Part shown: one piece after another, positions 24,701 through 53,763 of the stretch
How positions within the stretch are numbered: the stretch's first letter is position 1
Layout of the letters: the number at the start of each line of letters is the position of its first letter
Source: an uncultured Planctomycetales bacterium
Lineage (GTDB): Bacteria > Omnitrophota > Gorgyraeia > Gygaellales > Profunditerraquicolaceae
NCBI GenBank assembly: GCA_964467905.1
Contig: CAYXSY010000010.1
Span: 2,415-60,791, forward strand
Direction of reading: 5' to 3'
DNA length: 58,377 nucleotides
The notes under the pieces: generated by a model
The model's input: only the letters and a program-made list of their open reading frames with translations
Database searches by the model: none
Told to the model about the DNA's origin: nothing
Program-made: the position numbers and the translations under genes

Positions 24701-27700
24701 TATGATGTTTACGGCAATCTGATAACCTCAACCGATTCACGCGGCAATAGCGTAAATACGGCTTACGATACGGTTGCATCAACTTTTCCTGTGCGCGTAG
24801 TCAATTCTTTAGGGCAGAATATTCAGATGACTTATTATGGCATTAATGAGTCAGGCTCAAAAGCAGGGGTAAGCGGTTTTGGGCTCCCGGGCCAACCTAA
24901 AGCGACAATTGACACTAATAGCCAGCAGACTTATCAAATTTATGATGCATTAGGTAGGGTGGTTAAAGTCATCGGCCCCAATGATACCGAAGATTCACCC
25001 GGTGTGATTTACGAGTATGATTTATCAGCCCAACCCATAAAAATCACCAAAAAAGTTAAAGATGATTCAGGCGGTTCGATAAAATATCTTACTACTTACG
25101 AATTTTATGACGGCTTAGGCCGCCTTATTGAGAGTAAGTCTCCTGCTGAAGCAGACCCGCTTACAGGGGGAGCCCGTCAGATAGTCTCGGGTATTGTTAC
25201 CTATGATCAGAGAGGGCAGGTTAAAGAAAAATATCTGCCTTATTTTGTTCCTGCGTCAGCCGATTATGTTGCCCCGACTTATGAAACCCCGCATGTTAGC
25301 TTTACATATGATGCCTTAGGAAGAGTGGTGCAGGTCACCAATCCCGATGGCAGCTATTCAAGCGTAACTTACGATCAATTCAAGAAAACAACCACCGATG
25401 AAAACGGCCATTACAGGACAGAGTATTACGACGCATACAGTAGGATTATTAAGGTGGAGGAAAATAATTCCGGGCAAATTTATACTACCCGTTATGAATA
25501 TGATACCTTAGGCAACCTCACTAAGACTATCGATGATAAAGGCAACGTTACTCAAATTTGGTATGATTCGCTGGGGCGCAAAATAAAAATGGATGACCCG
25601 GATATGGGCGTCTGGCTTTACGAATACGATTCAGCAGGAAATCTTACCAAGCAAACCGATAATAAGGGAGGAGTTTTAACTTTTGAATACGATTCTCTGA
25701 ATCGTCTGATCCGTAAGTTAATCGGCGCGCAGGTGCTGGCCACTTATTATTACGATGATTTAACTAAGCCAAATTGCGTGGGCAGGCTTTCTAAAATAAC
25801 GGATCAGTCCGGCTCAACCGAGTTTTTCTATGATAATTTAGGCAGAGAGATAAAATCTACAAAGACAATCGGCGGCTCGCAGTTTACGGTCCAAAGAGAA
25901 TATGATTCGCTTGATCGCTTGACGAAATTAACCTATCCGGATGGCAGCGTTATCCAATATGAATATAATCCGCAAGGTATAGAGAAGGTCTATGGTTCTT
26001 CAAAAGACGTCTCTTATGTAACAAATATTAATTATTCTCCAACCGGCCAAATCTTAAGAATTCAATACGGTAACAACACCGAAACTAATTACGCTTATAA
26101 CCCGCAGACTCTGCGCCTTGATAATATTATCACTCAAAGCCCGAAGGGTAAAGTTCAGGATTTAAGTTACACCTTTGACAGCGTCGGTAATGTCACCAAT
26201 ATCCAGGATTATGTAAATAGCGCAACGCAGAGTTTTGTCTATGATGACTTAAACCGCCTCACGCAGGCAAGCGGCGCGTACGGCACTTACGCCTACCAGT
26301 ATGACTCAATAGGAAACATGATTTATAAGGAAGGCGTAAGTATGGTCTATGGTTCGACTGCGCTCACCACAAGTGGTAAGCCGCGCCTGCCGCACGCGGT
26401 TACACGTTTTGGCGATACAGAGATAGATTATGACTTAAACGGCAACATGATTAAGAAGGGTTCGCTTGAATATAGTTATGATGCCGAGAACCGTTTAATT
26501 AAGGCAGAAGATAAGTCTTCTTCGGGTGAGGTAACTTTGGATATAACATTAAGACCCGGCTGGAACTTTTTCTCGCTGCCGCTAGAGCCGCTGGATGCAA
26601 AAGCCACAAGCGTTTTATCATCTATCGCAGGAAAGTATGACCAGCTCTCGCGGTATAATCCTACGGCAAAAACATTCGAGCATTTTATAAATGATTCGCG
26701 TTTTAACCAGTTTGATTCTTTTGAATACGGCAGGGGTTATCAGATTTATATTACTTCGTCTATAGATGTTATTTTGACCGTTGTAGGGTCTGTCCCCGTA
26801 AAAGCTGCAGGAGCAAGTAAGGGGACTGACCCTAAAGCAGCTACTGAAATTTTACTTAAGACCGGTTTGAACCTTATTGCTAATCCTAAACTCACTGAAG
26901 TATCGGTTGAGCAAGGGCTTTCTCCTCTAAAGTTAGGCGTTGATTATTCCCGCGTTCTTTACTATAATAAAGACACATCAAGTTTTCAGGAATATTCTGC
27001 TACTAAGAAGGAATTTTCTGTTTTTAAGCCCGGTGTAAGCTATTTCCTTGATTGTTTAAAAGATGCCAGCTGGGTCATTGATAACTCAAGACCCGTAACT
27101 ACCTTCCTCTATGACGGTGACGGAGGAAGAGTAAAGAAGATAGTAGGAAGTAGCTCTACCACCTACATCGGCTCGCTCTTTGAGAAGGACCAGGACGGCA
27201 AGGCCACCCGCCACATCTTTGCCGGAGCCAACAGGATTTGCAGTATAGAAGGCTCTGATGCCCGCTACTTCCATTCAGACCACTTAGGCAGCTCTAATGT
27301 TACTACGGATGCCTCTGGTAATCAGGTAGGCTTAACGGAATTTAGCCCGTATGGGGGAGTTTCCCGGCAGACAGGAACCTACGAGCCCAAGTATAAGTTT
27401 ACCGGCAAGGAGCTGGATGCTTCAACAGGGCTGTATTTCTACGGAGCAAGGTATTACGATCCGGAATTGGGGAGGTTCATTAGTGCGGATACTTTCGTTC
27501 AGAATCCATACGACCCGCAGTCTTTTAACCGGTATTCTTATTGTCGTAACAACCCCATAAATTACGTTGACCCGACGGGGCACTTCTTCTGGATAATTGC
27601 AGGAGCTATAATTGGTGCAATTATTGGTGGGGCGGTTGCTGCAGCTACTGGTGGGAATATTGGACAGGGATTCTTAATCGGGGCAATCAGTGGGGCGTTG

Positions 27701-50844: not shown

Positions 50845-51462
50845 ATGCGCAAAGCAGAGATTAAGAGAAAAACAAAAGAAACAGATATTTTTGTAAAATT
50901 AAATATCGACGGCAAGGGCATTTCGAAAATTAATACAAGCATAGGTTTATTAGACCATATGTTGGATTTGTTCGCTTTCCATGGTCTTTTTGATTTGGAG
51001 ATAACAGCTAAAGGTGACCTACAGATAGATATCCATCATACAAATGAAGATGTAGGGATAGTATTAGGGCAGGCTTTTAAAAAAGCATTAGGTGATATGG
51101 CTGGTATTCGAAGGTTTGGGTCTAGTTCAGTGCCCATGGAAGATGTTGTGGCTGAGGTAACAGCAGATATCAGCGGGAGAGGACATCTCAGTATATCCGG
51201 ATATACACCTGTTCGTACAGTCAGAGGTGCTACTGAACAAATAACGGAAGCAAAATTAACTTTTCAAGATTTTCAGCATTTTTTTGAATCTTTTTGCTCG
51301 CATGCTGGCGTGAATGTAAATATAGCCCTACGTAATCCAAGCGAAGATATACATACACTACTTGAACCTATTTTTAAAGCGCTTGGCGTGGCTTTAGACC
51401 AGGCTACTCAAATTGATCCGCGGCGTAAAGGCGTACCTTCTACAAAGGGGATTATAGATTAG
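50845..51462 (+). CDS. hisB: Imidazoleglycerol-phosphate dehydratase
   Basis: RKTKETDI, DHML, DIHHTNED, PSTKG. Confidence 0.95.
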   Translation: MRKAEIKRKTKETDIFVKLNIDGKGISKINTSIGLLDHMLDLFAFHGLFDLEITAKGDLQIDIHHTNEDVGIVLGQAFKKALGDMAGIRRFGSSSVPMEDVVAEVTADISGRGHLSISGYTPVRTVRGATEQITEAKLTFQDFQHFFESFCSHAGVNVNIALRNPSEDIHTLLEPIFKALGVALDQATQIDPRRKGVPSTKGIID

Positions 51463-51916
51463 TAACTTGTAAGCTCGTAACTAGTAACTAGTAATTTTAT
51501 GGCAGAACAAAAGATAAAAGATTTTTATGATTTAGATACATGGAGAAAGGCGCATAGTTTTGTTTTAGAAATATATAAGATAACAGATAAGTTTCCCAAA
51601 GAAGAATTCTACGGTATAACGACCCAGCTGAGGCGTGCGGCATCATCTATCGCAGCTAATATTGCCGAGGGCTTTAGCAGGTATCATTATAATGACAAGA
51701 TCAGATTTTATCATAATGCGCGTGGGTCTGCGAGTGAGACACAAAATTTCTTGTTTTTGGCAAAAGATCTATCCTTTTTATTAGAAAAAGAATTTAAGTT
51801 GTTATTCGCATCTGCAGAAGATGTTAATAAGTTGATTAATGGCTTAATACGCTCTATTGAAGAACATCGATAAGAATTTAATTACTAGTTACGAGTTACT
51901 AGTTTACTAGTTACTA
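51460..51916. mobile_element. Four-helix-bundle gene between inverted 36-bp heptamer arrays
   Basis: Left array 51460-95 and right array 51881-916, both of unit structure 7+8+7+7+7 from the outer end; TA at both outer ends. Confidence 0.65.
51499..51873 (+). CDS. Four-helix-bundle protein (23S rRNA IVP/bAvd-like family)
   Basis: FYDLDTWRKA..FPKEE..QLRRAASSIAANIAEG..ARGSASE. Confidence 0.92.
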   Translation: MAEQKIKDFYDLDTWRKAHSFVLEIYKITDKFPKEEFYGITTQLRRAASSIAANIAEGFSRYHYNDKIRFYHNARGSASETQNFLFLAKDLSFLLEKEFKLLFASAEDVNKLINGLIRSIEEHR

Positions 51917-51918
51917 AC

Positions 51919-52533
51919 ATGATTGCAATAGTCGACTATGGCATGGGTAATATTCACAGCGTTAAAAAAGCGCTGGAGTCTATGGGTGCGCAAACTATTG
52001 TAACCGATAATCCGAAAGACCTTAGCCGCGCCGAAAAGATTGTTTTTCCCGGAGTCGGCTCTTTTGGGGATGCAGTTGTAGAGCTTAAAAAGCGTTCTTT
52101 AGATGTTGAAATAAGGAAACAGGTGCAATCAGGCAAGATTTTCTTAGGTATTTGTCTTGGCATGCAGGTTTTGTTTGAGAAAAGTATGGAATCACAGAAG
52201 TACGTCGGGTTAGGATTATTGAAAGGCTCCGTAGATAAATTTGAAGCCAGCCAAAAACTAAAGGTTCCGCATATGGGTTGGAATCAGATTACAAAAACCT
52301 CAAATAACTGCCAGTTATTAAAAGATATGCCGGATAATTCTTATGTGTATTTCTGCCATTCGTATTATGTGAATCCCGCCGATAAGAAAATTATCGCTGC
52401 TTCCTGTGATTACGGCGATAATTTTGCTGCGGTAGTCTGCAAGGATAATTTATACGGGCTGCAGTTTCATCCGGAAAAAAGCCAGGCAGCCGGATTAAAA
52501 ATCGTGAAAAACTTTGTGGAGATGCAATGCTGA
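51919..52533 (+). CDS. hisH: Imidazole glycerol phosphate synthase subunit HisH
   Basis: DYGMGN, LGICLGMQ, QFHPEKS. Confidence 0.96.
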   Translation: MIAIVDYGMGNIHSVKKALESMGAQTIVTDNPKDLSRAEKIVFPGVGSFGDAVVELKKRSLDVEIRKQVQSGKIFLGICLGMQVLFEKSMESQKYVGLGLLKGSVDKFEASQKLKVPHMGWNQITKTSNNCQLLKDMPDNSYVYFCHSYYVNPADKKIIAASCDYGDNFAAVVCKDNLYGLQFHPEKSQAAGLKIVKNFVEMQC

Positions 52534-53322: not shown

Positions 53323-53763
53323 GTGTTTAGAAAAATAGCTTTATATTCGGCGTGCGCATTTCTGGTAATTTCTTTATCGGGTTGTGCTACGGCAAGAAAG
53401 AGCAGTGATGAAGAGATGCAGAGTTTAAGGAATCAGGTTAGCTTGCTTGAATCGCAGCTGCAGTCAAAAGATGAAGAAATAAACAGCCTGCGCGATTCTT
53501 TGGATAGGGTAAGCTATGAGGCCCAGAAGACAATTGCCAAGAGCGATAAGATGGAAGTAAAATGCCGCCCGAGCACAAAAGATATCCAGGCCGCCTTAAG
53601 CAGCGCAGGATATGATCCCGGTGTAATCGATGGTAAAATGGGCAGGAAGACCCGCGAGGCAATTAAGGCATTTCAGAAAGCTAATAATTTGACAGCTGAT
53701 GGTAAGGTAGGGAAAGACACCTGGAATTTATTAAAATCCTATCTGGATAAGAAAGTAAAATAA
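53323..53763 (+). CDS. Lipoprotein with a coiled coil and a PG_binding_1 domain
   Basis: LSGC lipobox; [31 protein letters not shown]. Confidence 0.85.

Follow-up and report, generated by a model that had tools for sequence, protein, structure and literature searches.

The histidine operon in a 58,377-nucleotide stretch of DNA from an uncultured bacterium (contig CAYXSY010000010.1 of assembly GCA_964467905.1, positions 2,415 to 60,791 of the forward strand, deposited as Planctomycetales and placed by the GTDB in Omnitrophota; hereafter the window) is interrupted between hisB and hisH by a small gene for a four-helix-bundle protein, which is enclosed by two inverted arrays (arms) of seven-nucleotide units. 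This raises the question of what kind of element the gene and its arms form, how it came to lie in the operon, and whether gene and arrays belong together beyond this locus. Here we describe the element as an insertion between two his genes, and we find that the evidence tips somewhat towards a cassette like the intervening sequences (IVS) of 23S rRNA that bear an open reading frame (ORF), living in this case in the junctions of protein-coding operons.

An insertion between hisB and hisH

The left arm (51460-51495, + strand) consists of five units in the layout 7-8-7-7-7, TAGTAAC TTGTAAGC TCGTAAC TAGTAAC TAGTAAT, and the right arm (51881-51916, - strand) is an inverted five-unit array of the same layout, ATTACTA GTTACGA GTTACTA GTTTACTA GTTACTA, whose reverse complement reads TAGTAAC TAGTAAAC TAGTAAC TCGTAAC TAGTAAT. 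The unit type of both is NNGTAAY, and direct reading confirmed the arms as given in the original prediction, i.e. 36 nt each with the 8-nt unit second from the outside. A repeat search returned them as a single inverted repeat (51459-51496 / 51880-51917) of 38 nt with 89% complementarity. The two-unit motif TAGTAACTAGTAAC, with up to two mismatches allowed, occurs ten times in the window against 0.42 expected, a count reached in none of 100 shuffles, and all ten matches fall in three arrays: the arms themselves and, at 11653-11688, a third array that stands alone (solo arm; see below). Since the 8-nt unit breaks the register, a generic period-7 detector misses the arrays of the window, for which a parser of the GTAA core was used.

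Enclosed as loop cargo is a gene of 124 amino acids (51499-51873, +) that belongs to PF05635 (23S_rRNA_IVP)/TIGR02436. The upstream gene hisB (imidazoleglycerol-phosphate dehydratase, IGPD; 50845-51462, +, from the ORF list; PF00475, E=3.6e-46) ends in a TAG stop codon (51460-51462) that is at the same time the first triplet of the left arm, and stop codons occur in all three frames within this arm. Three nucleotides (TTT) separate the left arm from the ATG of the four-helix-bundle gene at 51499, GAATTTA separates the end of its ORF from the right arm, and two nucleotides (AC), with no Shine-Dalgarno-like sequence, lie between the right arm and the ATG (51919) of the next operon gene downstream, hisH (glutamine amidotransferase, GATase; 51919-52533, +). 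A scan of the element found neither a sigma-70-type promoter on the + strand nor an intrinsic terminator, and an Rfam search of 51300-52100 at a permissive E-value returned no RNA family. The genes around it are hisD, hisB, hisH and hisA, and what they surround is a discrete element of about 457 bp, situated at the exact stop/start junction of the translationally coupled genes hisB and hisH and oriented with the operon.

The cassette is an insertion, being present or absent at this same junction among relatives. Empty hisB/hisH sites, which the original prediction had named as a check, were found in several of them: a 21.5-kb contig of run X3, 92-97.5% identical in the flanks, skips 51462-51918 and reads GAT TAA ATG; among three more distant relatives, the junction is GAC TAATG in L153 (HisB 82% identical) and GAT TAG A ATG in L150, and in L149 hisB and hisH overlap with no element. 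The accompanying calculation that removal of the element with one TA leaves GAT TAA C ATG was likewise right. If both TAs went with the element, the junction would read GAT ACA TGA, in which stop and start overlap as ATGA. This product was rejected, because the HisB proteins of Omnitrophota relatives end in ...STKG[VI]ID (the same end residue in 39 of the 40 listed, an extra K in one) and because the real empty sites keep a stop right after GAT or GAC. The hisH of X3 is nearer to that of the window (97.5% identity) than is the hisH of L001 (90%), yet the element is present in L001 and absent in X3; the gain or loss is therefore recent.

Other arrangements were observed at the same junction. 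In L148 (HisB 79% identical) hisB/hisH holds a solo inverted array and no element; with a + array at hisD/hisB (1427-1461) and a - array at hisB/hisH (2140-2174), it is an ordinary gene, hisB, that is bracketed by inverted arrays in the absence of a four-helix-bundle gene. L169 possesses a second, divergent family member (67% protein identity) at hisB/hisH (264-635), and its host is as distant from the window as the empty-site hosts are; either, then, the junction has been used more than once, or the insertion is ancient and was lost several times. The body of hisB in the window (50845-51370) is about 72% identical to that of L001, compared with 90-93% for the 3' end of hisB, the four-helix-bundle gene and hisH, and the alignment with the X3 contig also ends upstream of ~51370. 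This pattern suggests a recombination breakpoint inside hisB, beside the element. Further downstream, a 146-amino-acid lipoprotein-like ORF with a peptidoglycan-binding domain (53323-53763, +), an unusual passenger for a his operon, lies between hisA and hisF and is also present in L001.

Relatives, gene-less arrays and other heptamers

Homologues of the four-helix-bundle protein number 714 at E<=1e-10 and are found in Omnitrophota and the candidate phyla radiation. Arrays were surveyed in 74 distinct relatives of 56-83% identity: at least three NNGTAAY units occur on both sides in 57 of them and on at least one side in 72. The association of arrays with this family at other loci, on which the original prediction had made its case depend, thus holds for GTAAY arrays at nearly all relatives and extends to other phyla. 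The commonest number of units in an arm is five, the innermost unit is usually GTAAT, and a 7-8-7-7 spacing recurs in both arms. The elements lie between ORFs of the same strand on both sides in 59 of 76 cases, with an opposite-strand neighbour in none, and 59 elements are distributed over 45 different junction types, which include gatA/gatB, glycosyltransferase/acyltransferase, an epimerase pair and CCA-enzyme/aminotransferase. As in the window, the upstream stop codon is usually located inside the array (51 of 61), and the next start codon mostly follows 2-9 nt past the right arm. In L203 (1975-2758) and L231 (1948-2748) a 120-amino-acid ORF lies between the four-helix-bundle gene and the next inverted array, which amounts to either a two-gene cargo or a lost right arm; by eye, this ORF resembles a tRNA-binding domain.

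The arms are highly conserved between orthologous elements. Those of L001 are identical to the window in 35 of 36 positions on the left and in all 36 on the right, at a synonymous divergence of the gene of 0.28, and in each of two orthologous pairs with synonymous divergence 0.28 the arms are identical in 71 of 72 positions. The arm sequences are thus under purifying selection, stronger than that on the coding sequence, and their rate of change is below that of synonymous sites.

The arrays have a much wider distribution than the gene. The arm pattern matched more than 120 stretches of genome sequence, from Bacteroidota, Cyanobacteriota, Chloroflexota, Patescibacteria, Planctomycetota, Verrucomicrobiota, Gammaproteobacteria and Omnitrophota. 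Over ~1.2 Mb of loci the spacing between paired arrays is nearly always either below ~100 nt (gene-less hairpins) or 362-435 nt (with the gene), while in the few cases of larger spacing (678-759 nt) either hisB or the gene together with one more ORF lies between the arrays. Gene-less hairpins with the 7-8-7-7-7 layout were found in L122, L133 and L158. Within the source metagenome the depth of the arms is 57-167, at a baseline of 5.5-6.5. Left and right arm are connected in several contigs by loops of 22-36 nt; gene-less copies, as solo arms and as arm-loop-arm hairpins, are multi-copy in the same community.

One such copy is present in the window itself. The solo arm at 11653-11688 (+; TAGTAAC TAGTAAGC TCGTAAC TAGTAAC TCGTAAT), which had been overlooked in the original prediction, has the 7-8-7-7-7 layout and is identical to the left arm in 34 of 36 positions, with neither a partner arm nor a gene. 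Its first triplet TAG is the stop codon of acpP, and fabZ starts 11 nt beyond the arm; in a relative of ~88% identity the acpP/fabZ junction also has an array, which is 5 nt longer. Close by, between fabG and acpP and overlapping both by 4 nt, lies a GIY-YIG-like ORF of 100 amino acids (11114-11416, +), which weakly matches the N-terminus of a group I intron endonuclease model. The X3 contig diverges from the window exactly upstream of the acpP ATG, and this ORF therefore has the appearance of another selfish insertion into an operon junction, one that is specific to the lineage. It was considered as a mobilising-nuclease partner of the cassette and rejected, as homologues occur in two other loci only (L140 twice, L163; 1.24 Mb searched). 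A further two-unit NNGTAAN cluster in the window (25088-25101, -) may be due to chance.

It is the 7-nt period, not the sequence TAGTAAC, that travels with the gene family, and more distant PF05635 genes are accompanied by other heptamers. Orthologues of XCC0516 in Xanthomonas, Dyella and Lysobacter are all located at accB/accC between 4+4 inverted units of the GGGAATC type, a repeat whose intergenic copies in Xanthomonas were described without explanation by Rehm et al. (PMC4692102). In Dyella (L263) and Lysobacter (L266) the gene is called from a start codon within the upstream GGGAATC array, some of which may thus be translated; the ATG called in Xanthomonas (L234) is ~40 nt past the array, and the reading frame is open back into it. 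Six homologues on cyanobacterial plasmids (31-52% identity) lie inside operons, e.g. at cmr2/cmr3, cas6/cas4, parA/parB and in a tra cluster, each with its own heptamer (AGTCAGG, AGGAGAT, AAAAGCT, AAGGGAA or AGGGTGT). A 49.7-kb plasmid of Geminocystis has just three period-7 arrays: two enclose the gene, and the third is a solo array built from the same type of unit.

The protein, its proposed mechanism and rival readings

The protein matches PF05635 with E=8e-36 (122.9 bits against a cutoff of 33.8) and TIGR02436 with 119.8 bits (cutoff 24). An AlphaFold2 monomer model with a predicted local distance difference test (pLDDT) score of 90.5 has helices at residues 8-29, 40-60, 64-90 and 96-123, arranged as an up-down four-helix bundle that is close to XCC0516 (2GSC; template modelling (TM) score 0.82-0.90, root mean square deviation 1.3-1.4 Å) and resembles Avd (4DWL; TM 0.76) at a sequence identity of about 7-12%. 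Profile matches and structure comparison agree with the earlier assignment to the family of 23S rRNA IVS proteins and Avd-like four-helix bundles. The motif RxxxSxxxNxxE is conserved in this family (PMC3936711), and its residues R46, S50, N54 and E57 are invariant in our alignment A1. Two solved homologues, 2GSC and 2RLD (BT_0352), have five chains each as deposited, and by analogy the protein is probably a pentameric ring like XCC0516 and Avd. A ratio of nonsynonymous to synonymous divergence (dN/dS) of 0.06 against L001, and of 0.06-0.19 over all comparisons, indicates purifying selection on the gene.

As an IVS-type cassette, the element would act at the level of the polycistronic mRNA. The arms would pair into a helix of ~36 bp, which would loop the gene out and bring the end of hisB beside the start of hisH. 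Such an arm-driven looping-out of the gene in RNA had been put forward before, and in the predicted fold the arms indeed form one long closing helix, in the minimum-free-energy structure (-127.7 kcal/mol, z = -4.1) as well as in the centroid structure. The helix would be a likely substrate of RNase III, as shown experimentally for the homologous rRNA IVS, and the protein ring could bind nucleic acid, with its own and the orphan heptamer arrays as obvious candidate ligands; the Avd pentamer is known to bind RNA stem-loops (bioRxiv 10.1101/2023.10.23.563531). Both processing by RNase III and RNA binding by a pentameric ring are suggested by homology. Finally, the repeated arms could themselves mediate gain and loss, if arrays recombine, if templates are switched between them or if a hairpin leads to precise deletion, and exchange or loss of this kind is probably to be preferred to a TA-duplicating transposase.

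Several observations weigh against this interpretation. No four-helix-bundle ORF was found at 113 of 120 genome loci with GTAAC arrays (up to 8 kb each; the gene is present in seven), nor on any of 17 viral contigs with such arrays, which also gave no sign of a phage vector for the cassette. Most arrays thus have no gene nearby, and therefore do not need it in cis. The Xanthomonadales cassette, at one junction in three genera, gives the impression of a domesticated or regulatory gene, not of an active mobile element. In the Pseudanabaena plasmid copy (L240, cas6/cas4) the arrays are direct instead of inverted, with 14 AAAAGCT units upstream of the gene and 10 AAAAGCC units downstream, and inverted AGCTTTT copies occur further upstream. 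A mobilising enzyme was not found, there being no transposase between array pairs in the ~1.2 Mb of loci. As for pairing, the variable dinucleotides match in register in only 21-30% of units, the matches anchored at the inner end number 46 against 60.2 +/- 5.3 with unit order shuffled, and arms pair with their own partner (-34.9 kcal/mol) only moderately better than with the arms of other elements (-27.3 kcal/mol). The arms are accordingly not selected as a perfect duplex, and pairing, processing and expression are predictions for this organism.

The conservation of mismatches is an argument for recognition of the arm sequence itself, and for this reason a network of regulator and operators is kept as the main rival. 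Under this explanation, which we regard as possible though rather unlikely and which is compatible with an IVS-type cassette, the arrays would be post-transcriptional operators of the host at operon junctions, the ring protein would bind them in trans in a manner analogous to TRAP or HutP, and the arrays at its own gene would be autoregulatory. Orphan arrays greatly outnumber genes and are made of the same type of unit as the arrays at the resident gene (the solo arm of the window, the solo array of Geminocystis), with a variable-dinucleotide overlap of 0.62 with their own arms against 0.36 with others. The arm sequences are conserved beyond the needs of pairing, mismatched positions included; the cassette is fixed at accB/accC across three genera; and, like the TAACTGA repeats of an earlier report (PMC4679880), arrays directly adjoin start codons that have no Shine-Dalgarno sequence. 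In addition, the commonest arm has five units, and 2GSC and 2RLD five chains each, which offers the lead of one heptamer per subunit of a pentamer; this fits the commonest case here but cannot be general, as unit numbers are 4 in Xanthomonadales and 10-14 in Pseudanabaena. Against this rival, close relatives differ in whether they have the cassette at one and the same junction, and the junction types are as many as 45 and unrelated; an insertion element would give such a pattern, a conserved regulon would not.

The original prediction favoured TA targeting. In that case the element would be a transposon with terminal inverted repeats, similar to a miniature inverted-repeat transposable element (MITE) or mobile insertion cassette, which carries the gene as a passenger and is moved in trans by a TA-duplicating transposase like those of IS630/Tc1-mariner. 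The 36-bp terminal inverted repeats and the multi-copy gene-less derivatives are as expected of such a transposon, the ends are TA...TA in the window, L004 and L018, and the empty site of the close relative X3 is one base off the predicted product of TA excision. However, TA is part of the repeating unit and palindromic, so that a duplication is indistinguishable from the inverted repeat, and the ends CA...TG (L010) and TA...TG (L169) are not direct repeats. Among 57 elements the outer dinucleotides vary (on the left AA 12, TA 11, TC 6, CA 5 and others), and TA is simply the variable dinucleotide that occurs most often in the heptamer. Ends of the kind CA...TG are inverted and not direct, and a search for a target-site duplication across these elements was negative. 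Furthermore, no array pair surrounds cargo of transposase size in the ~1.2 Mb of loci. The orientation of the gene is invariably sense (none of the 59 with neighbours on both sides has one on the opposite strand), which under random transposition would need strong selection. The evidence does not support TA targeting, and we consider a transposon of this type improbable.

It is most improbable, and in effect refuted, that the protein is the accessory protein Avd of a diversity-generating retroelement (DGR) or the locus a DGR remnant: the fold is that of Avd and some homologues have weak matches to PF22296 (bAvd), but the protein reaches 17.8 bits with the NCBIfam equivalog model of Avd, NF033474, for which the cutoff is 80, its gene has his genes and no reverse transcriptase as neighbours, and no direct repeat pair resembling a template and variable repeat (TR/VR) was seen in 51300-52100. 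Equally hard to credit is a neutral origin of the arrays by slippage, as simple-sequence repeats that lie beside an ordinary small gene by chance, since, even though heptamer repeats are over-represented between bacterial genes (PMC4692102) and the unit number varies between loci, this is contradicted by the arrays at 72 of 74 relatives, by arms more conserved than synonymous sites, by the inverted symmetry with the 8-nt unit mirrored in both arms, and by the 49.7-kb plasmid on which, save one solo array, the only period-7 arrays flank the gene.

Comparison with known systems

Several known systems share features with the cassette. MITEs and mobile insertion cassettes, e.g. the Correia elements of Neisseria, likewise have terminal inverted repeats, multi-copy derivatives without a gene, an intergenic location and hairpins in the transcript, but the cassette differs from them in lacking a target-site duplication and a known cognate transposase, in having arms of tandem heptamers rather than a unique inverted repeat, and in being always in sense orientation. 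TRAP and HutP are oligomeric rings that bind evenly spaced tandem RNA triplets, the sites of HutP having a period of 7 nt (UAG plus four spacer bases). Their fold is unrelated to the four-helix bundle of PF05635, for which binding of heptamers is putative. Unlike Avd of the Bordetella phage BPP-1, the cassette has neither a reverse transcriptase nor a TR/VR pair, and its protein stays below the equivalog cutoff.

Among intergenic heptamer repeats, the cyanobacterial STRR are a further family beside those recorded as GGGAATC in Xanthomonas, GGGGAYT in Nostoc and TAACTGA in Beggiatoaceae, Cyanobacteria and Bacteroidetes. The latter (PMC4692102 for GGGAATC and GGGGAYT; PMC4679880 for TAACTGA) resemble the arrays of the window in lying between same-strand ORFs, in overlapping stop codons or abutting start codons, in occurring singly or as convergent pairs, and in being multi-copy. 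In contrast to the families as described, the arrays here and at accB/accC of Xanthomonas bracket a PF05635 gene, which suggests that heptamer repeats and PF05635 genes are linked. Neither of the two papers mentions PF05635 or S23p, and in the literature we found no paper that connects PF05635 with heptamer arrays, apart from an incidental observation in Coxiella, where tandem GACAGAT heptamers lie just upstream of the S23p ATG and a 28-bp stem is cut by RNase III (PMC4990558). Our results point to a link that is general and apparently undescribed. We tentatively extend this to a wider proposal, for which the case is still short of even: PF05635 proteins and tandem heptamer arrays could be the two halves of one widespread system, in which each lineage travels with, and probably recognises, its own 7-nt unit and colonises operon junctions and rRNA helices. 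The GGGAATC, TAACTGA, STRR and NNGTAAC repeats would then be orphan arms or binding sites, and the 23S rRNA IVS the special case that resides in rRNA.

The locus thereby ties together three puzzles of 20-30 years' standing, i.e. the nature and mobility of 23S rRNA IVS, the function of the S23p gene and the excess of intergenic 7-nt repeats, and it offers a 124-amino-acid protein and a 36-nt candidate ligand as reagents. It also draws attention to a source of mis-annotation, as such genes are found in cas, par, acc, gat and his operons to which they do not belong.

The closest counterparts of the cassette are the ORF-bearing 23S rRNA IVS of Leptospira, Coxiella, Haemophilus and Brucella. These sit in helix 25 or 45 of the rRNA, while the cassette occupies an mRNA operon junction, hisB/hisH, and its arms, unlike theirs, consist entirely of heptamer arrays. 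The ORF of Coxiella is decaying and probably not translated, as opposed to the strong purifying selection on the cassette gene, and excision by RNase III, which has been shown for the rRNA IVS, is only inferred for the cassette. The rRNA IVS are patchily distributed and have long been suspected of mobility (PMC4990558). Like the cassette, they carry a PF05635 gene in the loop of a long stem of terminal inverted repeats (PMC4990558), they lie in sense orientation within a strongly transcribed unit and have no evident promoter of their own, and tandem heptamers directly precede the ATG (GACAGAT in Coxiella). The finding is real, and with respect to these systems it is an IVS-type cassette in a new habitat.

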